Part shown: positions 9,028-63,639 of the stretch, in pieces
How the letters are laid out: the number at the start of each line of letters is the position of its first letter
How positions within the stretch are numbered: position 1 is the stretch's first letter
Origin: Azolla caroliniana
Lineage: Eukaryota; Plantae; Polypodiophyta
Direction of reading: 5' to 3'
Length of the DNA: 64,000 bases
Assembly: GCA_043228905.1 (NCBI GenBank)
Contig: JBHGNT010000013.1
Coordinates: 12,090,001 to 12,154,000, forward strand
Notes under the pieces: model-generated
The model's input: the letters and a program-made list of their open reading frames with translations, nothing else
The model's database searches: none
Told to the model about the DNA's origin: nothing
Made by a program: the position numbers and the translations under genes

Positions 9028-9664
9028 TATAATTTAACATTTACTTCATATAGATTAGCATACATGTATATTATGATGCTATGTGTTATGGAAATGAAAT
9101 GATTCTATTTTCAACTAAGAATGGAGAACATTTGTATATTTGATTAATATACAAGGCATTGTTGTCAGGTGTATGTTTAATCTGTGACTAAATTTCAAAA
9201 TCTGGATACCTATGTGTACAATAATTGTATTTCTAAGAATCTTCTAGGGTGTTAGATTAGGTGAGAACATAGGTTGATGAAATAAGGTAGGGAGTAGTGA
9301 TGGGTCTAGATTGACCAATGAAGAATTGTTTGCACAATTATATGATCAACCAGACATCTTGAACCAAGAATAGTGTGTTAAAAGGTTGGCTTCGGAAGCA
9401 CTTGACATAACAAGGTTGAACGTCACGGTGATTAGTGTGCAGATCCAATTTCGATAAATCCTTCATGCATGTGGTCTCTTTGGCATTAACATGAAAGTAT
9501 ATTTCACCATGTGAAATTAACAACTCACCTTCCATGTCAAAGAGGTCATATGGTATGGGTGACAAAAAGTCACCTCGTGAGGGAGGGTAAGAGTGTGTGC
9601 TTGAAACAATGAGGAGAGGAGTCAAGGATTGTCTTTATACATAATACACAAGGTGCCCCGGTCT

Positions 9665-20900: not shown

Positions 20901-23900
20901 ATTGCCCGATCAATCGTAACCCCTTTGTTATATCCTGGTCTGGATCCCATTTCTGTATCCTGGGGTTGACTTCTAGCATTAGGAGTGATCGAGCTAAAGA
21001 AAGTTGTGATTGTTCTTTGTGGATGAGCTTGTGTGGCTGTATTCTTCAACAACTTTTCCCGATGTCTCTTGAGCTCGAGCAAGAAAAGTCCTAGGCATCT
21101 TTGGTCCTCATATTCCATTACCTTGCGTAGTGGGCCAAAGCCTTGTTTAAAGCGGCAATGGTATCTCCCTCTAATTTCATAAAAGACACTACAATGACAA
21201 ACATAGTGTTCTTCAGATTCCACTCCTTGATGACACAATTGGCAAATTCTCTCTTCTAGAGGTAGTCGTGTATATCTGCCCACCTCAATCTGTAGCTGAT
21301 GTGGTGAGGTTCGCAGCTGCCCTATCACATTACGCAGCGCATAGGATAGATGTATGTCCATATAAGGTGGCCTTATGACAAATCCATCCTCCGATGTATG
21401 TAAGAAGTATGTCTTATAGTGGGCCATCTTTGTACCAAGTGGTATTTTGGGGCTGATCCATATTATCTTGTTTTCTAAGTTAATAATATCAGTTCGGATC
21501 ACTCTATTCTTTTCCACTTTGGTCATATTGAGATGGGGACAGTCCAAGCTATATTGGAACGGGGGTAGTGCATTTATACTCATGCCATGTGACTCGAACC
21601 ATTGCTGCATTTCAGCATACCAACAATGAGTGTCTCCATTTTCAGCCAGTTGTCTTGATGACATAAGTTCCAACCTTGGGTACCTTCGTTTAGGGAGCTC
21701 CCAAAGACGTTGGATAAATGTCACTGATCGGAACAATGCCTCGGTTATTATAGGTGCTGCTCCCATCTCTGCCCGGATTATATCGTGGGGCACCGATGCT
21801 TTGCTCCTTATCATGCGAGCAATCATTGACACTAAAAGTCTCTCTAAATCTTTCCAATGATTTGCCTTGTTAAGACTCGGTCCCCATGTCTCTACTCCAT
21901 AGAGAAGAGTTGGTGTGACAAGTGTATCAAATAACCATAGCTTAGTCCGTGGCTCTTGGAACTGCAAATGTGCACATTGTCTTTCGAGAGCACCAAGGGC
22001 TGCATATCCACGAGAAAGTTGGGCACAAGCGGCCTCCTGTAAGGAGAACCTAGGTCCTGTAAATGTTACTCCTAGGTATGTGTAGGAGCGTGTGTATTCC
22101 ACCTTTTCCTCTCCCAAGAAGAATTCTGGTTCTGATCTTGTTACCCATGCTTGGGTGGTGTTAAACACCATCACTTTAGTTTTATTCATGTTGATTGACA
22201 AACCTTTGTCCGTACAAAATAGCTTTAAGGCATTTAGATGTCTTTGTAGTCCCTCCGGAGAGTCAGAAATCAGCACAATATCATCAGCATATAGTAATAT
22301 CTGTATAGCTATACTTGCTAGGTGTGCTAGAGAGAGAGAGAGAGAGAGATTAACTTCTTTTAAAGGCCAAACAAGAGACTACATCTTAACTGTTGTCTCA
22401 TCTTTGAGAACAACAAATCAACATAAAATAAATATTACTAAGTAAATATAAAGATAAATAAGATAAAAAGAGACTAAAGAATCTGGTTTTCAGCACATGC
22501 GAGATTCTCAAGTTAAATATATTATAACTTTTGTCTTCAAAAGATCTCTAGCATAGGTCAATCGAGAATGGAGAGGCCTCTGAAGCAAGGGAAGCACCTG
22601 TGATGGCGGGAGATAAAGGGTGTTGAGGTCATGATCCATGGGGCCGGGGCCTATGTGCACAACAAATTGCTATTGCCCGATCTATTGTCACCCCTTGGTT
22701 TGGAGCCCATTTGTGTATTCCTTGATTGACTTGTAGCATTAGTAGGAGTGATGGGGCTAATGAAAGTTGTGATTGTTCTTTGTGGATGAGCTTGTGTGGC
22801 TGTACTATTGTTCTTCAACAACTTTTCCCAATGTCGCTTGAGTTCTAGCAAGAAAAGTCCTAACGCCGTTGGTCCTCATATTCCATTACCTTGCATAGTG
22901 GGCAATGTTATCTCCTTATTTCATAAAACACACTACAGTGACAAACATAGTGTTCTTCGGCTTCCACTCCTTGATGACACAATTGGATATTTGTATTTGT
23001 GTATATCTGCTTACCTAAATCTCTAACTGATGTGATGAAGTTCCTAACTGCTCTATCACACCACACAACGCATAGGATAGATACATCTCCATATAAGGTG
23101 GTCTGATGATGAATCCATCCTCCGATATGTGTAAAAATAGACATGTAGTGGGCCATCTTTGTACCAAGTGATATTTTGGGGCTGATCCATGTTATGTTGT
23201 TTTCCATGTTAATAATATCAGTGCGGATCACTCTATTCTTTTTCACTTTGGTCATGTGTAGATGGGGACGGTCCAAGCTTATTGGAACGGGGGCAGTGCA
23301 TTTATGCTTATGCCATGTGACTTGAACCATCGCTGTATTTCAGTATACCAACAACGAATGTCTCCATTTTCAGCCAGTTATCTTGATGACATAAGTGCCA
23401 ACCTTGGGTACCTTTGTTTAGGGAGCTCCCAAAGACATTGGATACAAGTCTCTGATAGGAACAATGCCTTGGTGATATAGGGGCTTCTCCGATGTCTGCC
23501 AGGATTATATCATGGGGCACCGATGCTTTACTCCTTATCACGCGTGCAATCATTGACACTAAAAGTCTTTGTAAATCTTTCCAATGATTTGTCTTATTAA
23601 GACGGGGTCGCCACGTTTCTACTCCAGTTGGTGTGACAAGTGTATCAAATAGCCACAGCTTAGTTCGTGGCTTTTGGAACTGCAAATGTGCACCAAGGGC
23701 TTCATATCCACGAGAAAGTTGGGCACAAGCAGCCTCCTGTAAGGAGAACCTAGACCTTGTAAATGTTACTCTCAGGTATGTGTAGGAGCGTATATACCAC
23801 CTTTTCATCTCCCAAGAAGAATTCTGGTTCTGATCCATGTTTGAATGGTGTTAAGCACCATCACTTTAGTTTCATCCATGTTTATCGACAAACCTTTGTC

Positions 23901-24527
23901 AATACAAAATAGTTTTTAAGGCATTTAGATGTCTTTGTAGTCCCTCTAGAGAGTCACAAATCAGCACAATATCATCAGCATATAATAATATTTGTATAGC
24001 TATACTTGCTAAACATGCTTCTGAACCCCCGAATCTCTCTATATAATGTGATACCTCATCTATATAGAAACAGAAGAGAGTGGGGATAGTGGGCATCCTT
24101 GCTTCACTCTGATTGTGCAAGCCACCGCCGCTGACAAACCTTTGAAAAACTGCACTTTTCCTGACACAGATTCATAGAGTGCATAGATTACCCATTGCAT
24201 ATCTGTAGAAACACCACGGGCTTCTAGCCGCTGCATAAGCTGAGCACGTGGAATAGTGTCAAATGCTTTGTGGAAATCCACAAGGCAGCAATAAATCCTC
24301 TTATTATGGATCCCTTCTTTTGATTCGTATCCACATGTAACGTGCATCTATGTCCTTATGCACAACATGCACTCTATCATGGAGCTCCTTTTGGTATAAC
24401 ACAGCCACTCCTCCCAAATCTCTAGGGCTTTCCGTTGTCCAAGGTTGGGCATGACATATTGACTCCCATCTATATCCTTGTACACACAGAGAGAATTAGA
24501 ATTAGAATTAGAATTTTTATCGTCCAT

Positions 24528-45555: not shown

Positions 45556-48133
45556 CTACGAGCACTCTCTGTTGTAACCGTCGTCTGGTGAAGATCACGA
45601 GCACGAGGTCATTGCCTCTATGCCTCCACTTTGTATTTTCTCTCATAAAGTGATAGTTGGAGTCTGTGGGCTCCCATGGTTTTTTCCCTATTAGGGTTTT
45701 CCACATAAACATCCAGTGTCATTTCTATGTACTCTCTCGTTCATTCCTATTTTTGTGATTCAAGACTCGATTGTGGCCGAGCGATATTCCGCACTATTCT
45801 TCACAAATTGGTATCAGAGCGAACAACACAGAAAATGGAAGAATCGTTTGACAACATGTTCAAGCTCACCGGCTCCAACTACTCAGTGTGGAAGTCGAAG
45901 ATGAGGGACATGTTGGTGGTTAAAGATCTTTGGTTGCCGGTTTAGTTCAAGGACAAGAGACCGGATAAGATCGACACCATAGTGTGGGAGGTGATGCACA
46001 TGAAGACGATGACATACATCCGGTGTTTCATCGACATGAGCCTATACAACAACTTCAATGAAGAGAGCAAGGCTCATGAACTCTGGGAGAAGATCGACAT
46101 CATGTTCCAGAACAAGAATGTTGTTAACCGGGTTTCGGTATTCTGGAAGCTAGTGAGGCTCTAGTACCAAAACGACTCCAATATGGCAGAGCACATGAAT
46201 GCCTTCCAGGGGCTGATACATCAAGCAACCTCGTTGGAAGTACCTCTCGCCGATGAGGTACTCGCATTGCCCTTGCTTGGTTCCCTCCCGGATAGCTGGG
46301 AGATGCTAGTTGTCACGTTGGGCAACACCGGGCCGGAAGGAAAACAGTTGTCCCTAGCAAGGGTAAAATCAAGCTTGCTAGATGAAGAAGCTCGCCGGAA
46401 GGACCGGGAGTCCGGAACCGATCCGAAGGCCTTGGTCACGGAAGATGACCACAATCGGGGAAGAGGCTGGTATTAGAGTCCCCAAAACCGGGACAAATCG
46501 AGAACGAGGTCGAAGTCAAGGGGGAGGCCTACTTGCTTCTACTGTGGGAAGCCGGGGCACTTCCAGAAGAACTGTTGGCATTTCCAGAAAGAGAAGGAAA
46601 CTGGCACCACCGATTCGAAGAAGAGTTCGGACCGGAGAGGCCCGGATCGGAAAGGAACGTCGGCGATCACGACAAGTGAAGAAGAACTTATGCTCATTAC
46701 CGAATAGAATGAGTTAAACCTTGTCGGCGACGAAACAACGTGGGTTGTCGATTCCGGAGCGTCGTTCCACCTAACACCGGACCGGAGATGCTTCTCATCC
46801 TACACAATCAATGATCATGGTTGTGTCTGGATGGGGAATGAAGGTACATGCCGAATTATTGGCATAGGAGATGTGTTGTTGAAGGATGTCTGACACGTTC
46901 CGGAGGTTCGACTAAACCTGATATCAACTCGTTGGCTAGATGATGAAGGCTACACGGGTAGCATCCGGAACGGTGTTATGAAGTTCAGCGAGGGAAGCTT
47001 GATAGTGCCTCAAGCCCGAAAGATCAACACACTGTACTTGATGAATGCCCGGATATGCTGGGAAGAAGTGAATGTAGCATCCGATGCTACCGGTGAGCTA
47101 TGGCACAAAAGACTGTGTCACATGAGTGAGAAGAGGATGAAGAGGCTAGCCGAAGACAACCTCATTCCGGTGAAGGACGTGCAACTTGAGAAGTGCATCG
47201 ATTGCTTGGCCGGGAAGCAAAACCGAACCTCCTTCCGGTCAAGACCACCGATGAGATGGAATGCACTACTGGAGCTGGTGCATACCGATGTGTGTCAAGT
47301 GGACACGAAGTCACATGCCGGATCACAGTACTTCGTGACGTTCATAGATGACCACAGCCGGAAGTTGTGGGTCTCAACATTGAAGACGAAGGATCATGTG
47401 ATATCCGTCTTCAAGGAGCTCCACGCGAGAGTGGAAAGAGAAACCGACTGGAAGTTGAAAGCGGTTCGAGCTGATAACGGAAGAGAATATCAAGGGCAGT
47501 TCGAGGAGTACTGTCGGTTGAAGGGAATCCAACTCGAATTTACCGTTCCGAAGACGCCGGAATTGAACGGGTTGGCCAAAAGGATGAACCAGACCATAAT
47601 GGAGAGAGTTCGAAGCATGCTAGCACATGCCAAGTTACCCAAGATGTTTTGGGCTGAGACATTGATGACGGCGACCTATGTGATAAACAGATCACCCTTA
47701 GTACCCTTGGATGGAGACTCACCTCAGAAAGTATGGACCGGTAAGGATGTGGCTTACCGGCATCTGAAGGTGTTCGGATGTCTCGCATATGTGCATGTGG
47801 CGAAGGACAAGAGAGCAAAGCTAGATCCAAAGTCGCGCCCATGCATATTCCTTGGATACGGCGATGATGAGTTTGGTTACCGGGTGTGGGACCTGGTGGA
47901 CAAGAAGGTGTTCCGGAGACAGGACATAGTCTTCATGGAATACATGACCATTGCCGACTGGGAGTCGGAGAAGAAGATGATCAATTTTGGATCATCCAAT
48001 GAAAACCGGCCTGAGGAAACAAGGACCTACCCGGTTGAAAAGCAAATGTTAGCCGGTAACCGGATGACACTCGACGAATTGGCTGGATACGGATAGGAAC
48101 CGCACTGGCCGAAGAAGAAGACACCGGAACCGG
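45339..48133 (+). mobile_element. Ty1/Copia 5' part (LTR 45339-45805, PBS 45809-45820, gag, protease, integrase ORF 46978-48096)
   Basis: It has TGGTATCAGAGC, CFYCGKPGHFQKNC, WVVDSGAS, LWHKRLCHMS, FVTFIDDHSRK and RADNGREY. It is interrupted by the Gypsy at 48134. Confidence 0.9.
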
Positions 48134-51100
48134 TGTCGTGAAGAAAACCGTCCCCAGGCGCAAACCGTGTATAGCGTGTGTGAACCGGCCCTTACACGTG
48201 GGCACGCCCCTTGTTGTATAGTAGATAGGTAGGCACAAAAGTCGAATCCTAGGTAGCAAGATTCTATAGGGAGAATCGAGGAGTATCTCTGTCCGAAAGG
48301 ACAGAGAATTAATGCGATGTAAACGGGTGAAACGGCCTCCCTCCTTGAGCTATAAAAGAGAGGGAGACGGGGAGAGAAGGTATCGCGCGCTAGAGGGGAC
48401 GAAGTTTTGTCGGACTGGGACCGAGCTCTTCTTCTCTGTCGTTCTCCATAGCTTTCTTTTGCGCAGGTTCTCAGGAGGCTGATTCTGCTCCGTGGAACGC
48501 CCGTGTGCTTCCGGCAGAATCTCCATCTTGCTCCCCTGTGTGCATAGGTGGGTGATCAGGCGTCGGCATCCATCTCGCCGACCTGATCGGCTGTAACCGT
48601 TCGAGTCGTCCGCATACATACAAATACATACATATTTTTATATACATACGCTAGTGTTCTCAACTCGTGTCTCCTGTGTTGATTGGGCCGCGTCCCCGTG
48701 CGCTTCTTTGTCTATACGTGTGTGAGCGTCTCTCTCTTTCTCCCTCTTTTCTCACCTATTCCTCAGTCCAAGACCCTAGTGGTCCCGCCTTGTTCTCCAC
48801 ACACGCGCGTAGCAACTCGACATCTTTTGGTGAACCCGACGTGAATAGGCAGCAGAGGAGTAGAAGATGAGGGGGTCGGATCTCGCAGAAGCCATGGCTT
48901 CGGCTGTGGACCGTATAGTGAGTGCGCACGAAGGCACCGGCGCCCTTGATAGGACTATCGAGGCGGTTGTCGGTACGATCGGCCGATTTAGTGGGAAGGA
49001 TGCCACGAGCTACTTGGCGTCCTACCGGGCTGAGATGGTAATGAAGGACATTCCGGAAGAGAGGCACCTAGCCGGATTCCCTCAAGTGGCGATGTCGGGC
49101 ATCCATACGGAGGTGCTCGAGGTACGGGCCGAGAGCCGGACCTGGGAGGAGTTCGAAGGTCGACTCCTCGAAAAATACGGGCTTGAAGATGTGCTTCGAC
49201 TTTCGAAGCGGGACTTCATGGAGTGGGTGGAGACCCCCGACAAAGGAAGGAACGCGTCGGTGCTCCTCTGGGAGTTTGAGGAACGCATCGCGCGCCTCTC
49301 GGTGCTTGACCGGACCATTCTGGACACAAGTCGTGTCCTATTGTTTGTTAAGTCAGTTGACGAGTGGGATCGGGAGCAAGTAGGCCTCCTATTGGAGACT
49401 GATGACGGGCTGACGGCCGACTGGGCCGTGGTGAAGAGGGTTTGTGGCCGTTTCGACAAATGACGGGAATGGGTTGACAAAGGATCGGCAGGGGCGGGCT
49501 CTGTCGCAGCAAGGAAGCTCGAGCCAACACCACCAACGCGAAGGGAAGAGACCCGAGATTGGCTCGAGACCGGATCGGCTTCGACCGGCATGGTCAAGGG
49601 CTCGCCCGGGGAAGCAGCTCTGGAGGAACTGACGCGGATGGTAAAGGATCTCCAGATCGCCCAAGCACGGAGGGACAGTGGCGAACAGGCCCGTGACCGA
49701 CGACCTTTGGCTGGAAACAGGTGCATGTGGTGTGATGCGGTTGGCCACATTTGGAAGGACTGTGGGGACTTCGCCGAGGCGATGAGAAGCAACGTGATGT
49801 ACCTGTGGAACGGTCGGGTGCACGCCAGCTAGACCCAAAGGCCCCTGGACCTGAACGTCGGGCGAGGAGGTATGAAAAGGCTGATGGAGGAGGCGGCGGC
49901 TCGTCACGCGGAGACCGTCCACTACTCGGCGTCAGCTGATATTCGGGTCAGAGGTGGCGAGGCCCTGAAGACGAACAAAGCCGGGTTCTGGCCGACAATG
50001 CTAGAAGGCCTCGCCGGCGCATGACTAAGGAAAGAAGAGGCGGACCGTGCGGAAAAACGGGTTCGGGAGGTAACCGGGTGGAGTGACCCGATGGAAGAAA
50101 AGACGGGCTTCGTCGAAGCCGCTTGTCAAAACTACGAGGCTCTGGTGGAGGACAAGCGGGTAGGAAAAACCGGAGGGGCCGGGCCCTCGCAACGATATGA
50201 AACTCGATTCGGGCAAAGGCGGAATGAGGCCGATGTAACCGGCGCCCAGGATAATCCCAAGAAGGGCGGGTACCGGCTGGGCACAGAAATCGAAAGATCC
50301 ACGGACCTGCGAAAGGTCCTGGAAGAACGAATCCTCGACAGCAAGGTGGAACTATCGCTGAGGGAAGTGCTCGGGATCGCCAAGAAGGAGTTCCACGACT
50401 CCATCGTAGACTTGGTGAAGAGGAAGAGGCTGTCGACGGAGACAGAACCGGAGAAGCCGGTGGAGGTGCGAACGACGCACATAGAGGACATGGCGTTGGA
50501 AGACGTCTTGGCGGAGAGCCACTATTCAAGGCCGCATTGGGCCAGAGCGACCACGGAGACCCCCGTGAAGATCGGAGATGTTCATGAACCGGTGGTGGCG
50601 TTGGTGGACCACGGTTCAGAAATCAATTTGATGTCCATGGACTTCTACAAGAAAGGGAAATGGCCGATCAACACCAAGCACGGGTGGAAAATACGGGCAG
50701 CGACGCGTTGTCGTGAAGATTTTCGTCCATAGGCGGAAAACCGAGCGAAGCAAGCAAACCCGCGATGTGCAACGTTGCACATCACCATGTTGTATTTCTA
50801 TTTATCGATAGTGATAAGTATGGTGCTAGAAATGCACCTTAGGATTTGTAAAGTGTAGAGGTGATGTGCTTTTGCGCGCACATCCACGTGAGAGAGAGAG
50901 ATAGGTACATAGTAGTTCGTGTAGAGGTGGGAGTTAAGACCCATCCTTCCCACCTCCCCTAAAATCAAGGGAAATATCCCCATTGATTGAAAGGGGATAT
51001 TTTGTAGCACCCTTTTATGTAACGGTCTTCCCTCCTTGTGCTATAAAGGGAGAGGAAGAGCACCATTGTGGGGGTTGCCTTATTTTGGAGTGAGAGTAAG

Positions 51101-51393
51101 GTATACCATTTCGTTTAGGGTTCATTAGTTAGGGTTTCTTTTCTTCTTCGTCGGATTAGGGTTTCGGGTTTTTCATAGTCGTTCGGTGCGGCCTACGCGG
51201 CCGCCATTTTGTAATCGGTTTTCGGTTCTAATATAACTTGTTGAGCATTTGGCCTCCATCTTCCTCTTGTTCATTCTTTCTCTTCTTGTGCTAAGCTCCA
51301 TTCCGAAGTCCTATTCCTTCTCCCCTTCTCCTTAGTCCAAGACCCCCGTGGTTCCGCCCTTCTCCACGCACGCGCGTAACAACGCGACATCTT

Positions 51394-51410
51394 TGGTGAA
51401 CCCGACGTGA
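51394..51410 (+). promoter_or_regulatory. Primer-binding site complementary to the tRNA-Trp 3' end
   Basis: TGGTGAACCCGACGTGA is complementary to ...UCACGUCGGGUUCACCA. The same sequence follows the LTR ending at 48822. Confidence 0.85.
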
Positions 51411-51431
51411 AGGGCGGCAAGGGAGAAAGAG

Positions 51432-54400
51432 ATGGAGGAAGGCTTCGACTTCGAGGAGATGATGACAAAGATCTTGACGGACGCCGGACGGAAGAGGGCG
51501 AGGCGAGAGGCGGCTCAACAAGCGGTCGAAAGGGTGGTCCGTCTAGTCGGCCGGTTCGATGGGAAGGAGGTCCCAAAATTTTTGAGAGCCTACGATGCGG
51601 AAATGACGGGGATGGGCGTGGACGAAGCGACGAGGCTAGAGTTCTTTCGTCGAGCGGCGGCCGCATCAAAGTACGAGGAGGTCAAGGAGCTCCAAGAAGC
51701 TCACGAATCGTGGGAGTCCTTTGAAGGGGCTCTAATGGAGGCATACGGGTGCGCGGAATCGGAGGTAAGAGGTCGGCGAGAGTTCGATCGGTGGATGGCG
51801 TCGGCGAGGCGCCATCGGAGCGCAATAGAGGCATTCCGAGAGTTCGAGCGTCGTTTCTCTCAACTCTCGGAGTGGGAACGAAGATCGGTGGGGGCGGACA
51901 AAGTCCTCCTATTTTTGAAGACGGTCCATCATGAGGAGAGGATGGACATCATGATCGAGCTTCAAGACGATTATGGGGCGCATGGTCTCACCGAGGAGTG
52001 GCCCGAAGTAGAACGGGTGTGCCGACAACATGATAAGAGGTGGTCGGCCACAACACGACCCGCGAGCGGGGGAGAAGAGAGAGCTACGACCGACTACGCC
52101 GTGCCGTCGGACGAGAGCTCATCGCGAACCGGTTTGGAGGGGCTCGACCTACAAGCGCTAATACGGGAGGCGTGCGGGCTCGTAACGGCGAAAATCGAAG
52201 CCGAAGAATGGCTTATTGCGGGGTCGGGCCCGAGCGGATCGGAGGACGCGGAGGAAGGAGCTTCCTCACACATGGAGGACGGGGCCTATGCGGAGGCCGA
52301 AAGAGAATGGTACATCGGTACCACGGGAGAGGGTGCGGAGCGAACCGCCCTCTCGACATGGGGAAAAAGAACGGCCATGGACGAGGCCGATATCTACGAA
52401 GCGATGGACGCCACTTCGAGAGTGGGCGGAAGTTTCGGGACGCGGTTGCCCGAAACGTTCTACGAGGATTTCGCGAGCTTACTCGAGGCTTGCGAAATGG
52501 AGGAGGAAGACGAAACGAGCGATGGTGTCGCGACCTTCCACACACCGGCCCTAGAGGCTTCGGCGGTCGGCCCGAGTGCCGGCACGAGACCGAGAGCTAC
52601 GGATGGTGGCGGCGGCAAGGCGGACAACCGAGATGAGGACGAAAACGGCGAAGAAGAGGCGGCGGCAAGCATACTCGATGCTTGCGAAACCAAAGACGGG
52701 GTAGCCACGGACGACGATGTCCGAATGGAGGTGGCTACGGACGAGAGGAGTGGTGGTGTCGCGACCTTCCACACACCGGTCCTAGAGACTCCGGCACCCG
52801 GCCCGAGAGCCGGCGAGAGGCCTAGAGTGACGGACGGTGGCGGCGGCAAGGCGGGCAACCGAAACGACGACGACATGGGAGAGGGTGCGGAGCGAGCAAC
52901 CCTCTCGTCTTGCGGCGAATGGACGGCCAAGGATGAGGCCGGTGACCACAAAGCGGAGAGCGCCACTTCGAAAGTGGGCGGAAGATTCGGGGCACGGCGG
53001 CCCAAAACATCGAGCGGAGGGGAGGCGAGCGGTGGTGCCGCGACCTTCCACACACCGGCCCTAGAGGCTTCGGCGGTCGGCCCGAGTGCCGGCACGAGAC
53101 CTAGAACGACGGGCGGTGGCGGCGGCAAGGCGGGCAAACAAAATGATGCGGAGAACGGCGAAGAAGAGGTGGTGGCAAGCATACTAGAGGCTTACGGAAT
53201 CGGAGATGGGGGAGCCGCGGACAACGACGTCCGAACGAAAGCGGCTACGGAGACAACAAGCGGCGGTACCGGGTCCTTACCCACACCAATCCTAGAGGCT
53301 CCAATGGCCGGCCCGAGTGCCGGCATGAGGCTTAGTGCGACGGGAGATGACGACGGCAAGGCGGGCAACGGATACGAGAAGGAAGATCGGAGCGGACGGA
53401 GGCAAGACCCCTTGACACCGGAGCCGGAGACTTCGGCGGTTGTGCTCGGATGCCAACGTGAGACCGGAGAGATGGGCGGTGACCGTGAGGAGGTGAGGCC
53501 CGGAGAGAGCGCATACGAAGACGAGTATGCGGGGCCCGGAATGGGCGTATACGGTGGGTCCGACGGAGAGGACCGGAGCGGAAACGAGGAGAGAGTCGGG
53601 AACCGACCCGACCGGAATACGGCACGGAAGAAGAAGAGAGTAAGGGCCGGCGAACCGGGCCCAAACCGAAGGAAGCCGGCAAGACCGATTGTACGGTTAC
53701 GGTTACGGTTACGATGGGAGCCGGTAAGCGCGAGATGGAGGCTAACCGGGCACGACGACCATGGTTCGGGGGAAAAACGGAGACAAACGAGACCCTCCAT
53801 ACCCACTCTAGAGACTACGGCGGTTGCGGATCAACATAAGACCGGAGAAACGGCGGGTGGCGGCGAGGAGTCGGAGGCCGGAGCGTACGAGGTTACCGGA
53901 ACGGATATCCGGTACGAGATGGTGGACGGGTGGGTCCAAGACGGCGAGCCCGTGTCGGAACGGGCTACGGCGACAAAGGAGGAGAAGACCGACACGGAGG
54001 TCGGGTCTACGGCGGGAGAGCGAGACGAGATGCATGCAATACGGCCGAGGGAGGGCCAAGACACAAGCATGCCTACGAAGGAGCCACATCGAGCGACCGA
54101 AGATGACGGTCGGATCACGCCTTCGAGAGGCGAATACGAGGAAGAAGGCGGCGACGACGAGACCTGGCACGATGCTAGGGAAGATTGGTGGGAAAAGGTG
54201 GCCTACGGAGAGGCTAAGACCGGCGGCCACGAAGATAAGGCCCGAGAGGGATCCTCCACACCGGCTATAGAGACTCCGGCGGTCGGCGCGAGTGCCGACG
54301 TGAGACCAAGAGTGGCGGACGGTGGCGGCGAGGGGACGAAGGCCACAACGGATGAAGGCACCGAGAGAGGCATACGGGAGGTCGCGGGGAACGAAGACGT

Positions 54401-55181
54401 ATGCGCCCAAAAGAACGAACACGACATCACGAAGGATGTGTGCGGTCGAGCGGGCCAAGAGGGCCAAGAAGGTGTTCCTCCGAGCGAAACGGAGATCGGG
54501 GAAGAAAGGTACCTTTCCGAAAGGGTACGCGAAGAGGAGCGGAATGCGAAACGTGCAATGCGGCCGCATGAGGGCCAAGCAACGAGCACGGGAATGATGG
54601 TATGCTCTACGGCGAAAGAGCACGGAAGGCGAAGGGAAGGCGGAAGATGCGCGATGGGGTCGTCGAAGGACCGAAGCACGAGCACGCATTCGGGGGAGAG
54701 CATCGACATACGGGGAAAGCCCACGGAAGGCAATCACGGAGCGGAGAGAGTCGGCACGGCGAGGTGTGCGGCACGGGAAAGGCGGACAAAAGAAGAGCAA
54801 CCGGGTCGGCAACGGCGTTCGGGAGGACCGATCGGGGAAGAAAGCTCGGGCATCGGAAACGGCGGTCCGGATGTAGACGGTGGTTCGAGGAATCACGGTG
54901 GACGTGGCGGATCGGGTGGAGGCAACGACTCGGCGAGCATCGTCGAGTGTGGCGGATCGGATGGGGCCGACGGTTCGAGACCATTCGACGAAGATGGTGG
55001 GCCGGAAGGCGACGGTGGTTCGTGTGGACGGGGTGGACTTGCTCGAAGTGGAAGACGAAGCGGGGCAAGCCCACGAGGTTGTCAAGGGCTCGGTTGGCCG
55101 CCTTGGCCGAAAATCTCGCGTTTTGTTCCCCTTTTGGCACATACCGGTGGATGTGCGGTTAGGTGGGGGCGGATGTCGTGA
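51432..55181 (+). CDS. 1249-aa Gag-like protein: N-terminal capsid-like domain plus ~1000 aa of acidic, Gly-rich repetitive tail; no pol domains
   Basis: The first ~200 aa align with the host gag at 48867 (GRFDGKE/GRFSGKD, WESFEGAL/WEEFEGRL, VLLFLKTV/VLLFVKSV, GLTEEW/GLTADW). The ORF is uninterrupted and its stop lies inside the 3' LTR. Confidence 0.85.
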   Translation: MEEGFDFEEMMTKILTDAGRKRARREAAQQAVERVVRLVGRFDGKEVPKFLRAYDAEMTGMGVDEATRLEFFRRAAAASKYEEVKELQEAHESWESFEGALMEAYGCAESEVRGRREFDRWMASARRHRSAIEAFREFERRFSQLSEWERRSVGADKVLLFLKTVHHEERMDIMIELQDDYGAHGLTEEWPEVERVCRQHDKRWSATTRPASGGEERATTDYAVPSDESSSRTGLEGLDLQALIREACGLVTAKIEAEEWLIAGSGPSGSEDAEEGASSHMEDGAYAEAEREWYIGTTGEGAERTALSTWGKRTAMDEADIYEAMDATSRVGGSFGTRLPETFYEDFASLLEACEMEEEDETSDGVATFHTPALEASAVGPSAGTRPRATDGGGGKADNRDEDENGEEEAAASILDACETKDGVATDDDVRMEVATDERSGGVATFHTPVLETPAPGPRAGERPRVTDGGGGKAGNRNDDDMGEGAERATLSSCGEWTAKDEAGDHKAESATSKVGGRFGARRPKTSSGGEASGGAATFHTPALEASAVGPSAGTRPRTTGGGGGKAGKQNDAENGEEEVVASILEAYGIGDGGAADNDVRTKAATETTSGGTGSLPTPILEAPMAGPSAGMRLSATGDDDGKAGNGYEKEDRSGRRQDPLTPEPETSAVVLGCQRETGEMGGDREEVRPGESAYEDEYAGPGMGVYGGSDGEDRSGNEERVGNRPDRNTARKKKRVRAGEPGPNRRKPARPIVRLRLRLRWEPVSARWRLTGHDDHGSGEKRRQTRPSIPTLETTAVADQHKTGETAGGGEESEAGAYEVTGTDIRYEMVDGWVQDGEPVSERATATKEEKTDTEVGSTAGERDEMHAIRPREGQDTSMPTKEPHRATEDDGRITPSRGEYEEEGGDDETWHDAREDWWEKVAYGEAKTGGHEDKAREGSSTPAIETPAVGASADVRPRVADGGGEGTKATTDEGTERGIREVAGNEDVCAQKNEHDITKDVCGRAGQEGQEGVPPSETEIGEERYLSERVREEERNAKRAMRPHEGQATSTGMMVCSTAKEHGRRREGGRCAMGSSKDRSTSTHSGESIDIRGKPTEGNHGAERVGTARCAARERRTKEEQPGRQRRSGGPIGEESSGIGNGGPDVDGGSRNHGGRGGSGGGNDSASIVECGGSDGADGSRPFDEDGGPEGDGGSCGRGGLARSGRRSGASPRGCQGLGWPPWPKISRFVPLLAHTGGCAVRWGRMS

Positions 55182-57709
55182 AGATTTTCGTCCATAGGCG
55201 GAAAACCGAGCGAAGCAAGCAAACCCGCGATGTGCAACGTTGCACATCACCATGTTGTATTTCTATTTATCGATAGTGATAAGTATGGTGCTAGAAATGC
55301 ACCTTAGGATTTGTAAAGTGTAGAGGTGATGTGCTTTTGCGCGCACATCCACGTGAGAGAGAGAGATAGGTACATAGTAGTTCGTGTAGAGGTGGGAGTT
55401 AAGACCCATCCTTCCCACCTCCCCTAAAATCAAGGGAAATATCCCCATTGATTGAAAGGGGATATTTTGTAGCACCCTTTTATGTAACGGTCTTCCCTCC
55501 TTGTGCTATAAAGGGAGAGGAAGAGCACCATTGTGGGGGTTGCCTTATTTTGGAGTGAGAGTAAGGTATACCATTTCGTTTAGGGTTCATTAGTTAGGGT
55601 TTCTTTTCTTCTTCGTCGGATTAGGGTTTCGGGTTTTTCATAGTCGTTCGGTGCGGCCTACGCGGCCGCCATTTTGTAATCGGTTTTCGGTTCTAATATA
55701 ACTTGTTGAGCATTTGGCCTCCATCTTCCTCTTGTTCATTCTTTCTCTTCTTGTGCTAAGCTCCATTCCGAAGTCCTATTCCTTCTCCCCTTCTCCTTAG
55801 TCCAAGACCCCCGTGGTTCCGCCCTTCTCCACGCACGCGCGTAACAACGCGACAGCGTGCCACCGAAGAACTGCATGGAGCCTGCCCGAATGTACGAGTA
55901 AAGATCGGCGATGTCGAGATTGACCAACACTTCTTCGTGCAGGAGATGTCCTCACATCCGGTTATACTAGGAGAACCGTACATCACGACAGCACGGATGG
56001 AGACCAAGGTGCTGGACAACGGCTCAACCTATGCAAGGGTCAAGAGCCAGGATGGGCGTCACTCGGTCCAGTTCCTGACGGTGAGACCGAACCATGAGCG
56101 GAACCGCGAGACCCTCGGGGGCGAAAGCCGAGAGGATTTTTAGAGAGGGCTATCAAGGCGTGGGGTCGCGGTAGTCCAGACACTTCGGGAAAACCCCACA
56201 AGTGTACGATAGCGAAGAAGACCTGTACTATAAGTAGGAAATTTTGGTTCTCCGACAACGGAGGGTGTACGATAGTCGACGTCGTTGGCCGGAAGAAGAA
56301 AAGGCCTTCGCCGAAAGGTCGATTTACTCGGTCGGTGATCTGTACTCGGGGTACGATCAGTTCCAGCTAGCCATAGAGAGTAGAGACATCACGACAATGC
56401 GAACTCCTCTCGGCCTAGTACGGATGTGTACCCTACCGCAAGGAGGGACGAACTCGGTGGCTCACATGGTGAACGCAATGAACAAGGTGCTGAGGGATTG
56501 TATCCCGAACATCAACATGCCGTTTTTGGACGACGTGCTGATCAAGGGATGCCCGGTGGAGGAAAAGGACGAGACGATCGGACCGGACGGGTGCCAGAAA
56601 TTCGTGGCGTTGCACATCAATGACTGCGAGAAGGTGCTGTAGAGGTTAGAGGGCGCGAGGCTCACCTTCTCCGGGGGAAAATCGGCCTTCGGCCAATCAG
56701 AGATCATGGTCGTCGGACACCTATGCAGGTCGTACGGCCGGAAACCGTCTCCGGCTAAGGTAGAAGCCATCTCCGCAATGAAGCACGACTGTAGCTCGGT
56801 CACGGAGGTTCGGAGGTTCTTGGGAGCATGCGCGTTCTACCACATATGGATCCTGCATTACGCCCATGTCGCGGAGCCGTTATACGGGTTGCTGAAAAAA
56901 AGGTGAAAATTCGAGTGGAGAGACGAGCATACGGAGTCTGTCCGAAAGATGAAGGAAGCACTTGCCGCAACTCCGACGCTCCGAAAGGCTGTCTACGAAA
57001 AAAACACTCCAATTTACGTAACGGTAGACACAAGTCCGACCGGGATCGGATGGGTCGTCAACCAAGAGGACGAGGACGGCATGCGTTTCCCGATCCGGTT
57101 CGGCGCGAAGGTCCTCAGTGAGTGACAACGAGGATACGCCCAGGTTAAAGGTGAGCTCTGGGGTATCGTTTCGGCGGTAAAGGCCGATAAAGACTACCTG
57201 ATTGGGACAGAGGTAATTATCGAGATGGACTGCCTGCCAATTCTTGGCATGGTTTCCGGATGCGCGACGCCAGACCTAGCAATGCTCAGGTGGATAGCGT
57301 ACATCAAGTCCCTGAATCCGGAAATACGACACATTTCCGGGAAAGACAATGCCATGGCCGACATGCTTTCAAGGGCAAGGTTCGAAAACGCGGGCGGCAT
57401 GGTTTCGGAGGACGAGGAAGTCGGCGTGGACTTCTTCGAGGCGGCTTACGTAACAACTGGTAGGGAATGCACTCCAACGCTTAACGATTTCGACGAGAGC
57501 AAGTACAACGGGGAGTGGCTGTAGATCGGCGGGTTCCTGAAAACAATGACACCGGACGCGGCATGGACAAAGGATGAGGCCAACCGGATTCGGAAGAAAG
57601 CGTACCGATTCTTTCTCCGGGACGGGTACATATGGAAGCACCCGAAGAAGAGGAACGACATCCCGCTCCGAGTGGTGGCGAAGGAGGAACAAGAGGATTT
57701 GTTGGCGGC

Positions 57710-58038
57710 TGTTGAGCGGCAAGCTCAACCGGAGCCGGATCGGCTGAATAAGTTGGAGCCGATAAGCGAGACGGATCGGGCGAAACGGATCGGTATGACG
57801 GTGAGCAACCGAACCGGCAAGCAGTGGAGGCTGAGTGCAATCCGTAACCAGAAGTCCAATCGGAAGCCTAGTATAGGATAGACTACTAGGTAGCTACAGT
57901 CTCGTAGCAAGTGTCAGATGCTCGTGTGAGCATTGAAGTACATGGTACTTCTGTCAGTCCCAAGAGGACTTGTATAAATAGTGCTACTTAGCACAGTGTG
58001 TGTACAGAGTTTTGATATAATTTTGAAATTGTGTTCTG

Positions 58039-58072
<34 letters not shown>

Positions 58073-61000
58073 GTGTGTTGTTCTCTGTTTTACGCTTCCG
58101 CAAACACTTACGTTTACATGGTATCAGAGCGCGAGGGTTGAGAACCTCTGCTGCAGACATTTACTCTTGAAAAGAAAACCCTAACAGGTCAAAAACAGAC
58201 ACAGTAGAAGACATGGATAGAGGCATGGCTACGTCACTCCCGGTGGAAAAGCTCGACAGGAGCAACTACGCATCCTGGTCTTACAAGATGCACCAGTACC
58301 TGCTTGGACATGGGTACTGGAGTTATGTCGAAGGAGCGAATGATGCGGCGCCAGACTCGGCACACAAGGACTTCCCGGTATGGGAACAGGCGGCAAGCAG
58401 TGTGATGTACTGCTTCGCATCCAGTGTCGGCGATCAGCTGCTCAGCCACATCCGTGACGCCAAGACACCGAAGGATACTTGGGGGAACCTGAAAAAGGTT
58501 TTCGCCGCAAGCACCACTGCCCGGAAGCTGCAACTCAGACAGGAGTTGAGCAATGTTCGACAAAAGAACATGTCCGTGGCAGACTACACGGGCCGGATAA
58601 AGGAGATTTGCGACTCACTCGCCTCTATCAATGTTACCATAGAGGAAGACGAGATGGTGCAGGCATGTCTCGGAGGCTTGGCGTCCAGGTTCGGAGCCTT
58701 CCGGACTGCGGTGTGTACAAGGGAGAATACCCCCTCATTCTTCGACTTACAGTCGATGCTCCTTGTAGAGGAGAACCACGTCGGTGCATCTACCAGTGCA
58801 TCCCCGGACAGCCGAATGTTGTACACGGGAACGGATTGGCACTGTGGGCGTGGTGGAAGAGGTGGGTCGGCACGCAATGGAGGCGGCCGGCAAGAGCAGG
58901 AACGGAGGCACTATGAGTGTGCCGACAGCAGTTCTGGGACTTCCACAAGCAGGGGGAGTCAAGGCAGTGCCGGAGGCCGGCAAGACAAATCCGCTATGGA
59001 ATGCTGGTACTGTGGCAAAAAAGGCCACAGGGAAAGCGAGTGCTGGAGAAAGCGTGCTGATTCGGACAAATCCGGATCCAGCAAGACCGGTAAGGATGGT
59101 CGGCAAAACTCGCACTACGCAAACGGATCAGGAGGATCCGGAACCGGAAAGGTCGGTAAGGGGCCAGCCTTGGTGATGAATCACAAGGCAAACTCAATGA
59201 AGAAGACCACTTCCAAAACAGAGGAAGTGTGGTATGTTGATTCCGGCACGTCAAACCACATGACGATCCACAAAGAGTGGTTCTCCTTTCTAGAAAAACC
59301 GGATCAACCAGGAGTAGTCGAAACTAGAGACGACACTCCACACCCAATCGTGCACGTCGGAGAAGTCCCTCTAAGCCACGTTGCACAAAAAGGGAAGCTG
59401 ATGAACGTATTACACGTTCCGACGATCACGAAGAACCTGGTGTCCGTCGGTCAGATTGTCGACCAGGGAATGCAGGTGCGGTTTACGCACCTCGGGTGCC
59501 TCATTGAGGATGAGAGCGAAGTCATTGCGCAAGGGCGCAGAGACGGGAGGATGTTTATCCTCAACACCAATGACATTGGCACTGCTCTGTTCGCAAAACG
59601 ACAGAAGGTCGAGTCGGACATCGACCTATGGCACAAGCGGATAGGCCACGTCAACTACCGGAGGCTTCAAGACCTGCAAACGAAACAAGTCGTTTTCGGT
59701 TTGCCAAAGTTCAGCAGCCGGAGAGCCGAAATTTGTGAAGCCTGCCAACTTAGGAAGCAACACCGGCTTCCATTCCCCACCGAACGGAACCGGAGCCGTA
59801 ACAAGCTCGATCTCATCCATTCGGATGTGTGGGGACCGGCACAAAGTGTAAGCCTTGGCGGGAGCTGGTACTTCGTCTCCTTCATCGACGACTATACTCG
59901 ACATACTTGGATCTACCTCATTGAGCGGAAGAGCGAAGTCTTCGATTGTTTCCGGAGCCTCCAGAAGATGGTGGAACGGGAATCAGAGAGGAAGATCAAA
60001 TGCCTTCGGTCGGATGGCGGAAAGGAATATTTTTCCGGCCAATTCACTAGTTATCTGCAGTAGAAGGGAATTCGGCGAGAGTTCAGCTGCAGATACACAC
60101 CGGAGCAAAATGGTGTGGCCGAAAGGAAGAACCGGACACTCGTCAAAGCGGCAAGGACAATGCTGGAGGAGAAGAGCATGCCCCGGTTCTACTGGGCGGA
60201 GGCGGTCCGGACGACCGTCTACATACAAAACCGCATTGGTGACAAGGTGTCAGCTCATGAGCTGTATTTCGGGCGCAAGCCGAACTTAAGACACCTTCGG
60301 ATATTCGGCAGCATAGCGTATGTGCATGTGCCGGATCAGAAGCGGAGGAAGTTGGATGCAAAATCGGAAAAATGCATCCTAGTCGGCTATGCTCAAGAGC
60401 AAAAGGGGTATAAGTGCTATAACCCCCGGACGAAGGAAGTCCGAGTTAGCCGGGATGTCGAGTTCGATGAATCAGCATCCTGGTACTCCGTACAGACTCC
60501 GACTTCCGATCCCAACCGAATGCCGGAAGATCAGGCCAGTGAGCCTGAATCAGCCTTGGAAGAGGATGATGAAGCCGGGACTCAAGATGAGAGTCCGGAA
60601 TCGTTGCGGTTGAGTGGACCGAACGAGCGACTGAGTCGGTTGGAACAGTCAGATGAAGAGACGGCAAGTGGTGGAGACTCTGCCATGCTCTCCCCGTGCA
60701 AGGAACCAAGGAAACGGTTCACGCGCAAAGAGAAGGGGAAGAGGAAGATGCTGGAATTCGAAACCGGCAACGATGAGTCAGATCGGTGCGTATCCGACTC
60801 CGGAAAGGAGAAAGGCAGATCTTCGGCAACGAAGACCGAACTGGCCAAGAAGGGCCTCAAATCAAGTGACGGTGCGTTGCGCAGATCAACCCGGTAGAAG
60901 GATCCCGTCATGTGGTACGGGTACAATGAATACATGGCGCATCATTATGCGTACATTTCTAAGGTAACAGAAGTGCGTGAGCCGGAGAGCTACGTAGAAG

Positions 61001-63639
61001 CGGCAAAGGACGCAAATTGGCGTGCCGCTATGGACGAAGAAATGCGGGCACTCGATGCCAACGAAACTTGGGACCTAGTTGATCCTCCCCGTCACTGTAA
61101 ACCGATCGGATGCAAGTGGGTGTACAAGGTCAAGTACAACGCCGACGGTTCTGTTAACCGGTACAAAGCCCGGTTAGTGGCGAAGGGATACGCGCAGACC
61201 CACGGAATCGACTACGACGAGACCTTCGCTCCTGTGGGGAAGATGACGTCGGTTCGTGTGGTACTGGCGGTTGCTGTGGCAAGGGGGTGGCATCTTCACC
61301 AGATGGATGTGAAGAACGCCTTCCTTCAAGGAGAGCTTGAAGAAGAAGTCTTTATGACTCAGCCCCCCGGATTTCAATCGGAGATGAACAAATCAGCGGT
61401 ATGCCGACTGAAGAAGTCTCTTTACGGCTTGAAGCAAGCCCCCCAAGCTTGGAACGCGAAGATCACGCACCGGTTGCGTAAGCTAGGGTTTGCGGTCTCT
61501 AAGTCGGACTCTTCGTTGTTCATCCGGCAAGGCTCTGACGGTCCGGTATGTATACTCTTGTATGTGGATGATTTAGTCATCACCGGACCAGGTCTTCCCG
61601 AAATCAACCGCGTCAAGTCCCAGTTGTCGGACGCATTCGAAATGAAGGACCTAGGGGACCTTCATTATTTTCTTGGGATCGAAGTGATCCGGACCCCCGA
61701 CGGCATATTGCTCTCACAACGAGATTACGTGTTGAATATGTTGTATAAGTTCGGCATGACGGATTGCCGACCTGTCTCCACACCCCTGGACCGGAACCAG
61801 AAGCTCCGTCCCAACTCCGGACCGGCCTGCAATGAGAAACGGTTCCAACAGGTTGTCGGAAGCCTGATCTACTTAACCATCACCCGACCCGACATCAGCT
61901 ATCCGGTCGGCATGGTAAGCCAGTTCATGCAGAAGCCGACCATGGAGCACCTTCACTGCGCACAACGAATATTACGGTATGTCAGCGGCACTAAGGACCG
62001 GGGACTGCTATACCGGCGAGGTATACCCGAAGAGCTTGTCGGTTACACAGATGCTGACTGGGCCGGCGATGCGTCTAATCGCTGCTCCACTTCCGGATAC
62101 ATGTTCTCCATAGGTAGCGCGGCCGTTGCGTGGAGCAGCAAGAAGCAGCCCACAGTGGCTTTGTCAAGCACTGAGGCTGAGTACCGGGCCGCTACTGTTG
62201 CCACTTGTGAAGCCATCTGGCTTCGGCGACTGCTGCGAGACTTGCGGATCGAGGTACCGACCCCGATCTCGATTTACTGCGATAACATGAGCGTACAGCT
62301 CGCCAGGAACCCTGTGTTCCATGCTCGCACAAAGCACATCGAGATGCACTACCACTTCGTGCGTGAGCAGGTCCTGAACAGTGAAGTTGACCTACGGTAT
62401 GTTCATACGGATCGGCAAGTTGCCGACATCTTCACCAAGCCGCTCGGATCGGACAAGTTGCAGTACTTTACCGACATGCTTGGTATTCAGCATCTCGACG
62501 TGCCGCACATGAGGGGGAGAAGCAAGGGCAAAGTCTCTACCGAAACAGGCAAAGGCCAAAAACCTGTTGAACCCGTTGGTAAGAGGAGAGCCAGAAGAAG
62601 AGGAGACAAGAAGATGAAGGAAGCCGAGTCGACGAAGGAAGTCGACACATCCGAACAGGTCGGAGCAAGCGGCTGTGAAGAAGAGTTGTGCACTCAGGAA
62701 GAGAAGCGCATGCTGTGCGAAGGTCATCACGACGGTACTGACCATGATACAGAGTCGAATGAAGAATTCGATTTCGGTTCGCCGGCTGAAGAAGCCGAGG
62801 GAAGCATGGAGAAGGCCAAGACTCGGAAGTGGTCCGATGTGGTGAGAGGCCTGACGCCGGAAGTCGAATCGGAGTGTACCGATTCGGACAAGAGCTGGAA
62901 CGAGTCGGAGACAGCTGACTCGGATCAACAGATGGATCCGGATGAGACGGATCGACTGAAGGCCAAGGGGACACGGACACAGCAGAAGTCGATGCCATCG
63001 TGGGAGAACCGACGGATCGGCAAGCGCCGGAGTCACAGCAACGTGAGTGCTGAGATGGGCCTATTGAGCATACATGCCGATCGAGAGGGTCGAGGCGCGC
63101 AGAACCAAAGGGGTCGCGGCAAACGGGACCGGACCGGACGAGGAGCGCGAGCAAGGCGGAGTGACACCAGGAGAAGTCGGTTGGAAGAACCGACTGCCAC
63201 AGAGGTCGACACTGCGACCCCACCTCAGGTTGAGCTTGAGGGGGAGTGTTGAGCGGCAAGCTCAACTGGAGCCGGATCGGCTAAATAAGCTAGAGCCGGT
63301 AAGCAAGACGGATCGGGCGAAACGGATCGGTATGACGGTGAGCAACCGAACCGACAAGCAGTGGAGGCTGAGTGCAATCCGTAACCGGAAGTCCAATCGG
63401 AAGCCTAGTATAGGATAGACTACTAGGTAGCTACAGTCTCGTAGCAAGTGTCAGATGCTCGTGTGAGCATTGAAGTACATGGTACTTCTGTCAGTCCCAA
63501 GAGGACTTGTATAAATAGTGCTACTTAGCACAGTGTGTGTACAGAGTTTTGATATAATTTTGAAATTGTGTTCTGCTCTCTCTCTCTCTCTCTCTCTGTT
63601 GTTCTCTGTTTTATGCTTCCGCAAACACTTACGTTTACA
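57710..63639 (+). mobile_element. Full-length Ty1/Copia element; LTRs 57710-58118 and 63247-63639; TSD GCGGC
   Basis: GCGGC is at 57705-57709 and 63640-63644. The PBS TGGTATCAGAGC is at 58119-58130 and the PPT TTGAGGGGGAG at 63236-63246. The host integrase rejoins as DLLAA|YHDSPWAGH. Confidence 0.97.
58213..63252 (+). pseudogene. Copia gag-pol polyprotein (gag, CCHC, PR, IN, RT, RNase H, plus a C-terminal extension) in one frame with two premature TAG stops
   Basis: ORFs at 58213, 60115 and 60910 share a frame, with stops at 60061-60063 and 60895-60897. Motifs are CWYCGKKGHRESEC, YVDSGTS, RSDGGKEY, QMDVKNAFL, LYVDDL, YTDADWAG and RTKHIE. Confidence 0.92.

Follow-up and report, generated by a model that had tools for sequence, protein, structure and literature searches.

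Gag-retaining but non-autonomous retrotransposons with long terminal repeats (LTRs) are represented in plants by the TR-GAG elements, in which LTRs, a primer binding site (PBS) and a polypurine tract (PPT) enclose a single Gag open reading frame (ORF) without reverse transcriptase (RT), RNase H or integrase. According to the accessible text of Chaparro et al. (2015; PMC4350172), these elements are shorter than 4 kb and create 5-bp target site duplications (TSDs), and in TR-GAG1 the ORF, of 433 aa, includes a zinc finger and lacks an internal duplication. Among autonomous elements, the available portion of Neumann et al. (2019; PMC6317226) defines in Physcomitrella the non-chromovirus Ty3/gypsy lineage Phygy, of 7.7–10.0 kb, with a 4-bp NCGN TSD (100%) and a tRNA-Trp PBS (81%). 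The partners of non-autonomous elements are often untraceable, as the accessible part of a sugar beet study notes (PMC13570524). Here we describe a gag-only element, the satellite, located on the plus strand at 50709–55854 (5146 bp) of a 64,000-nt stretch of the genome of the fern Azolla caroliniana (GenBank assembly GCA_043228905.1, contig JBHGNT010000013.1, positions 12,090,001–12,154,000 of the forward strand), together with its family and its helper. This whole stretch is referred to as the window, and positions are counted from its first letter. We found that stop and frameshift mutants of the element fail to spread while the sequence it encodes is free to change, a contrast seen as a population-genetic signature only.

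The window copy lies between matching flanks of GCGT (50705–50708 and 55855–55858), a TSD of the NCGN type that a preliminary description of this DNA had already called perfect. Its two 681-bp LTRs (TG..CA; 50709–51389 and 55174–55854), previously judged identical by eye, agreed at 681 of 681 positions in an exact alignment, and the 5' LTR carries a TATA-like box at 51042 (consensus match only). The proposed tRNA-Trp PBS was borne out: its 18 nt (51394–51411) are complementary to the 3' end of tRNA-Trp(CCA) and pair with that of the genomic tRNA-Trp(CCA) genes at all four loci examined. The internal region is filled, as described, by one intact ORF of 1249 aa (51432–55181), whose stop falls within the first 8 nt of the 3' LTR. 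There are no internal stops in this frame and 33 and 23 in the other two plus-strand frames, so base composition does not account for the open frame. A capsid N-terminal domain (aa 38–106, 51543–51749), supported by an AlphaFold2 model and VIA structural comparison, and a C-terminal domain (aa 112–209, 51765–52058), supported by VIA, are followed by a tail of about 1040 codons (52059–55178) rich in G, E, A, T, D and R. The tail contains direct repeats (52322–53409) at spacings of 231, 279, 510 and 552 nt, each a multiple of 3, with an extra 74-nt repeat copy at 54257–54330. A predicted 6-bp hairpin with a CCGG-containing loop (55137–55156) stands just 5' of the G-rich PPT (55161–55173) adjoining the 3' LTR; both are common to satellite and helper. 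The reported lack of pol motifs and of a CCHC knuckle was upheld, as the ORF showed no CCHC, CxxC, DHGS or YxDD-type motif and matched no Pfam family at E≤0.1. In a six-frame blastx comparison with intact autonomous gag-protease and pol, only the capsid was matched (first ~210 residues, 35.5%, E 1e-29). By Pfam, motif and blast comparison, the element contains no protease, RT, RNase H or integrase domain, as in TR-GAG elements.

We searched 523 Mb of the genome, in 22 large contigs, for further copies. Among the best 150 of 10650 candidates of a protein search, which were scored, at least 66 full-length capsids shared at least 94% identity, and exact leader patterns marked at least 338 satellite-type and at least 871 autonomous-type sites genome-wide. 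From 75 collected stretches of the young family and close relatives, 62 copies were used for counts; those omitted included L018 (the tandem twin of L017), L111 (which duplicates L090), L027 (with deleted start and capsid), the pol-bearing chimera L098, the older copies L112–L115, the recombinants L036 and L037, and six copies with unparsed ends (L032, L077, L080, L082, L088 and L097). L036 and L037 had been considered as a diverged subfamily, which was rejected; they are recombinants with a near-identical tail and were for that reason kept out of the tail dN/dS. L027 has identical LTRs, a matched TSD and repeated PBS fragments, with its start codon and most of the capsid gone, and is probably a reverse-transcription accident. 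Young two-LTR copies measured 4.3–5.9 kb, with 0–4 LTR mismatches in the first 33. A matched 4-bp TSD was found in 55 of 63 copies with flanks, all 55 of the NCGN type and most commonly ACGT (20/55), and a 5-bp TSD in 0 of 63. ORFs of 984–1489 aa ending no more than 24 nt from the 3' LTR start were present in 45 of the 62 copies. A metagenome scan gave four loci, including one intact 1419-aa copy at 96%, possibly from the same species. Contigs from four runs, none of them recorded as RNA, cover the element, which says nothing about its transcription.

The satellite thus resembles the TR-GAG elements of PMC4350172, as far as its accessible text describes them, in having LTRs, PBS and PPT around one Gag-capsid ORF, no pol domains, recent activity and presumed mobilization in trans. 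Unlike them, it exceeds 4 kb, has a 4-bp NCGN rather than a 5-bp TSD, lacks a zinc finger, carries a far longer ORF with a repeat-built neutral tail, and bears traces of a helper; the accessible text of PMC4350172 contains neither a helper trace nor selection for an open frame. Since it fails the <4 kb size and the 5-bp TSD, we class it as a variant of the gag-retaining non-autonomous LTR elements. Its NCGN TSD (55/55 matched) and tRNA-Trp PBS are those given for Phygy in the available part of PMC6317226, as is the filling of the helper's interior by its coding region; however, the satellite has no pol, and the helper, at 7.0–7.3 kb, is just below the Phygy range and encodes gag-protease and pol in two overlapping frames. 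We therefore speak of a Phygy-like lineage, by TSD motif and PBS and not by an RT tree.

Stops are purged from the tail frame. Only 4 nonsense variants were seen where 17.0 were expected, whereas the two untranslated frames had 38 stop variants against 35.9 expected and 35 against 42.3; with two more private stops from masked blocks, the count became 6 versus 17 (P=0.002). Each of 17 early-stop lesions (9 nonsense, 8 frameshift) was confined to a single copy, compared with 105 of 315 silent variants found in more than one (P=0.001); the excluded twins L018 and L111 share the lesions of L017 and L090. Late stops, at codons 1060–1202, were also private, in the few cases available, and the frameshifts that copies share are late ones, where the new frame stays open to the LTR. 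Older copies, about 25% diverged, remained nearly all in register, with 3–8 stops against 36–47 in the other frames, and neutral simulation yielded 8.6 stops at 12.5% divergence and 15.5 at 25%, with 0 of 300 runs stop-free. If the protein were supplied in trans, stop mutants would spread, yet they do not, and the requirement is therefore in cis. We infer from these sequence patterns that selection acts in cis on translation through to the 3' LTR.

As a protein, by contrast, the tail evolves neutrally. Codons 211–1240 (reference copy L016) carried 269 synonymous and 610 non-synonymous variants across the 62 copies, a dN/dS of 1.03 computed with context-specific rates, without residue-class bias (acid-to-basic changes: 29 seen, 34 expected). 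Against three older copies at ~25% divergence, changes were spread evenly over the three codon positions (105/111/112, 140/138/128 and 123/139/124) and dN/dS was 1.2–1.3. Even the reading frame of the last 130–170 codons varies: among 45 intact copies, 24 read an Arg/Trp-rich frame (net +24 per 100 aa), 16 a Gly-rich frame and 2 the third frame, with 3 unclassified. Where most copies read Arg/Trp, the window copy has a Gly-rich C-terminus of ~130 aa (54780–55181) in a derived frame, following a deletion at 54779/54780. Gains and losses of repeat units in other copies stay in frame; indels of 6, 12 and 18 nt at a (TACGGT)n tract preserve the frame by virtue of the repeat unit's length and were excluded as evidence. 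An origin of the tail as decayed pol was rejected, there being no tblastn match to autonomous elements and a blastx match to the capsid alone; blastn gave only the ~42-nt pre-LTR block and tblastx, beyond that block, only short scattered segments chained to it. The tail matched no Pfam family and had no usable Atlas match, neither of which demonstrates novelty. It is likely disordered, judging by composition only (order-promoting residues 16%, against 30% in the capsid); a charge-hydropathy proxy labels the capsid disordered as well and is hence uninformative for the tail. Of the outcomes that the preliminary description had named as telling against its account, a tail dN/dS near 1 was found; stops and frameshifts, on the other hand, are purged, the family has multiple copies, and decayed pol is not the source of the tail.

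The capsid is recognizable by its predicted fold. The AlphaFold2 model of the first ~210 residues reached a pLDDT of 93, and its N-terminal domain aligned with the Arc N-lobe (VIA Z 10.5, rmsd 1.6, 65 aligned) and its C-terminal domain with the PEG10 CA-like C-terminal domain (Z 9.2, rmsd 2.3, 85 aligned). The top 10 VIA rows were Arc, dArc and PEG10 (Z 9.1–10.5), Z values below about 13 being weak alone for helical folds. The best structural matches also include Ty3 capsid lobes, and Atlas Retrotrans_gag clusters matched at 0.93–0.94. Foldseek returned nothing at E≤0.001 for the model, and searching the PDB by sequence with the capsid profile yielded no match at E<1. Taken as modelled, the capsid has the two-lobed helical fold of the Ty3/gypsy (Arc/Ty3-like) type.

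Constraint on this capsid is weak, and either half is dispensable in sister subfamilies. Capsid dN/dS was 0.12–0.20 in the helper (8 pairs) and 0.44–0.75 in the satellite (20 pairs); within the young family it was 0.72 (p=0.08), and per domain against distant subfamilies 0.36–0.67. Two young copies share a 44-residue capsid deletion. One sister subfamily, found via the relative P0005 and accounting for 64 of the 150 scored matches at 92% or more, lacks ~83 residues comprising the entire N-terminal domain. In a sample of 20, 11 had LTR pairs, mostly 97–98% identical, and 9 of these 11 had a common terminal stop 11 nt before the LTR; four copies without frameshift held 2–4 stops against 31–38 in the other frames. 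Internal stops were shared at reference positions 653 (two copies) and 663 (three copies), the latter reading that segment in another register. Other subfamilies lack the C-terminal domain: the first 30 satellite leaders by position comprised 10 with a full capsid, 4 without the N-terminal domain, 14 without the C-terminal domain (three of them with a frameshift read through by eye) and 2 unclassified. LTR pairs were present in 10 of 20 stretches without the C-terminal domain, six of these frameshifted by decay, and three complete copies held 2–5 stops against 33–40 in the other frames. In subfamilies of either kind the frame thus continues as far as the LTR. dN/dS was 0.54–0.66 for the lone C-terminal domain and 0.62 for the lone N-terminal domain (p=0.11). 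None of the 30 leaders had a PPT within 1.5 kb, the shortest found being 2.3 kb. The earlier suggestion that the satellite supplies its own modified capsid is, as a requirement, left without support by the relaxed dN/dS and by the amplification of subfamilies that lack one or the other domain.

A candidate helper was found. An RT search returned many copies with pol frames of 1164–1175 aa, and most of 20 autonomous copies examined had LTRs 99–100% identical, a 708-aa gag-protease with a CCHC knuckle and an overlapping pol, which together occupy the internal part. They too have NCGN in their matched TSDs and a tRNA-Trp PBS. The helper gag-protease (L056–L073; for example L064, ~2850–2900) ends at a five-T run that precedes its stop, with pol overlapping in the −1 frame; a programmed frameshift, with the protease in ORF1, is likely from this arrangement. 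What helper and satellite have in common is limited to the LTR's first 11 bp, its U5 end with the PBS, the pre-LTR block and a gag piece. The 11-bp start is as the preliminary description gave it; the shared LTR end, put there at ~60 bp, extends over the last 74 bp (48749–48822, 82% alike), and the pre-LTR block is 85% alike over 72 bp with 518–589, although the block quoted measured 38 bp and not ~60.

The helper has left its mark on the satellite. In five young satellite copies the last 18 nt of the LTR differ from the family norm and equal the helper end; they shift to helper U5 at a shared 7-nt word, and both LTRs carry the helper end. A 27-mer ending the helper U5, including the PBS start, occurs 32 times, and the 30 occurrences examined belonged to 25 autonomous elements (L057/L061 type) and these 5 satellites. 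Two further satellite copies have shorter helper ends. A template switch right after priming, which would place both RNAs in one particle, is the simplest reading; conversion at the DNA level with subsequent retrotransposition is less likely. The helper subfamily could thus be identified from 18-nt LTR-end swaps. With intact young autonomous copies and helper U5 ends in both LTRs of five satellites, the proposed satellite/helper pair is supported, and the helper LTR ends, a likely mark of co-packaging, support helper dependence directly. The pre-PPT hairpin (55137–55156, 520–540 and helper loci L056–L074), which has an 8-nt loop, exists in three stem versions whose pairing is kept through two-sided changes, with compensatory changes at two pairs and all 6 pairs kept in 24 of 28 distinct variants; it could be a dimerization signal common to both partners.

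Mosaic elements also occur. The chimera L098 combines helper LTRs and helper pol with a satellite gag. In L007 and L037 the 5' LTR is of helper type and the 3' LTR of satellite type; L037 is also fused tail to tail to an autonomous element, and L172 begins with a helper-type U3. L007 has a matched ACGT TSD around its two unlike LTRs, which is weak evidence because ACGT is the commonest target.

We favour, with moderate confidence, a reading in which the pol-less lineage rides in the particles of its Phygy-like helper and its frame is kept open, likely through escape from nonsense-mediated decay. The LTR would drive a full-length RNA translated from an AUG 42 nt downstream of the LTR; this RNA may be packaged together with helper RNA by way of the PBS, hairpin/PPT block and LTR ends common to both, and would use the helper's protease, RT and integrase. 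The frame would matter in cis, the tail being translated filler that places the stop beside the 3' LTR, while the capsid piece, under weak and relaxing constraint, would at most join helper particles. An early stop would leave up to 4 kb untranslated, and such an RNA would be destroyed by decay triggered by its long 3' untranslated region (3'UTR) before packaging, so that satellite RNA would have to be translated to the end for propagation. According to the accessible part of PMC1693880, decay in tobacco leaves is triggered by long 3'UTRs and depends on their length, and poorly translated transposon RNA is reported in the available text of bioRxiv 2020.04.08.032953 to enter small interfering RNA (siRNA) silencing, which would select in the same way.

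Several observations weigh against this reading. The decay data come from an angiosperm, another plant group than the host. Escape from decay leaves unexplained the 3.0–4.5 kb of filler in intact young copies, which have not contracted to the capsid alone, the residual capsid constraint (dN/dS 0.44–0.75) and the retention of at least one capsid domain in every subfamily sampled. In the helper itself the gag stop is ~3.5 kb away from the 3' LTR, so the helper must escape the same decay; frameshifting ribosomes could protect its RNA. The tandem units L017 and L018 (counted once) both have a stop 408 nt before the LTR, and a dN/dS near 1 could conceal mixed positive and purifying selection.

The retained length is better accommodated if the nascent chain acts as a tether, the capsid piece folding off the ribosome and binding helper Gag while the long tail keeps its own RNA attached. 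Packaging would then be cis-preferential without a nucleocapsid, with the tail as a timer or leash whose length and openness matter while its sequence is free. Such a tether would also explain the in-frame repeat gains, the lost CCHC knuckle, the weak capsid constraint (0.36–0.67 per domain, 0.54–0.66 for the lone C-terminal domain) and the presence of one domain in every classified leader (28/30). We nevertheless regard the tether as rather unlikely, since either domain can be lost, so that no single interface is needed, and the lone N-terminal domain shows no significant constraint (0.62, p=0.11). Late stops (codons 1060–1202) should be nearly harmless to a tether, yet they are private, albeit in few cases. 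Ty1 Gag acts without cis preference in the accessible text of PMC3945221.

The view of the preliminary description, that the satellite makes its own modified capsid protein, here combined with a functional acidic disordered tail (setting particle size or spacing, or binding RNA through a basic patch), we consider improbable. The youngest subfamily does have both capsid domains intact, and they model well; the capsid shows a dN/dS below 1, and disordered regions tolerate many substitutions. Set against this are the tail's dN/dS of 1.03 without charge or class bias, the alternation of its last 130–170 residues between Arg/Trp-rich and Gly-rich frames, the 44-residue deletion in two young copies and the whole subfamilies without a domain; moreover, supply in trans would let stop mutants free-ride, and none spread. 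Very improbable, finally, is a frame left open merely by youth and low T content without selection. The few LTR mismatches (0–4 in the first 33 two-LTR copies), a tail of 12% T and the 12% of neutral runs that are stop-free at 2.5% divergence would fit it, but the other same-strand frames carry 33 and 23 stops, stop-creating changes are depleted in this frame only, and copies stay in register over ~25% divergence and through many indels, by which this explanation is largely refuted.

The satellite is inserted in a decayed autonomous-type Ty3/gypsy element on the same strand, whose 5' part (48134–50708) comprises an LTR (48134–48822), gag, a CCHC knuckle, DUF4100 and the start of the protease, and whose 3' part (55855–57709) holds the rest of the protease, RT, RNase H and the start of integrase, with several stops. 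The insertion splits the protease, and the integrase picks up again at 63640, past a nested copia element. The host RT is up to 94% identical to further genome copies. The earlier view of an insertion into a probable helper-family member holds in that the host is a helper-type Ty3/gypsy, but it is a dead copy with many stops. Across the family, 16 of 61 copies are nested in helper-type DNA, which is weak evidence of partnership because of NCGN targeting and the CpG density of the helper (100/kb, against 20/kb in flanking DNA). Four of 61 copies (50705–50708 in the window, L079, L020 and L103) sit at a homologous helper-protease site, a hot spot with two insertions per orientation in different host copies.

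In the nested copia (57710–63639; LTRs 93% alike, several stops), the pol frame continues for ~255 acidic-then-basic codons beyond RNase H, reaching the 3' LTR; in a further copy, this tail contains a single in-frame stop, compared with 7 and 13 in the remaining frames, and the same pressure for a stop near the LTR possibly applies. As a control this family makes the tail comparison weak, its RT/RNase H dN/dS being 0.85 with post-insertion decay dominating. Elsewhere in the window, a decayed copia (45800–48130; gag, integrase) is truncated by the host LTR at 48134, and positions 1–600 belong to another Phygy-like autonomous element, AT-richer, of which the 3' end (end of the integrase, pre-LTR block) is present and whose LTR start is nearer to that of the satellite. 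Further features are a 1.75-kb tandem duplication (20568–24011, 82%) with a minus-strand RT fragment, an LTR pair flanking a minus-strand copia gag (14580–19429) and an imperfect inverted repeat of 345 bp (8699–9043). In the genome at large, the tRNA-Trp 3'-end pattern has 61 matches, with clusters at ~0.9–1.2 kb spacing (G000:C8:17796786-17823371, C16:4989495-5105637 and C5:10105608-10112201) that are likely tandem tRNA arrays.

No account of this family, or of selection for an open frame only in any LTR element, was found in the open-access literature. Like the satellite, the sugar beet families of PMC13570524, in its accessible part, include GAG/PROT-only elements above TR-GAG size, chimeric and tandem copies and template switching; their domain remnants, however, are patchy and treated there as history, without sequence-indifferent selection on a frame. 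For mini-Ty1 and mini-Ty3, the available text of PMC4974528 reports that terminal cis signals and helper proteins suffice, as presumed for the satellite, but mini-Ty tolerates near-total internal loss while the satellite lineage keeps a long open frame. In Ty1 p22/p18, a lone capsid C-terminal domain reportedly interacts with full Gag; p22 is said to restrict transposition and to derive from an autonomous element, unlike the satellite capsid pieces.

Gag-only plant LTR elements have been assumed to keep their ORF for the capsid; here the frame is defended and the protein largely is not. A parallel lies in the defective-interfering (DI) RNAs of mouse hepatitis coronavirus, reportedly studied by de Groot in 1992 and van der Most in 1995, as cited in the accessible part of PMC8255065. 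These are cytoplasmic RNA-virus replicons studied by mutagenesis, whereas the satellite is a nuclear LTR retrotransposon whose signature comes from natural copies, and the analogy is one of function, not kinship. That a young repeat has a long, intact ORF is accordingly no proof of a functional protein. Because copies with natural early stops and subfamilies with half a capsid exist, the decay and tether models can be tested directly; were the tether true, half a capsid on a leash of ~1000 codons would hijack the helper shell and replace the nucleocapsid domain, a co-translational cis-packaging route for which no LTR element was found in the open-access literature. Like the DI virus RNAs, the satellite of A. 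caroliniana would offer a natural example, within a transposon, of selection for translation as such.

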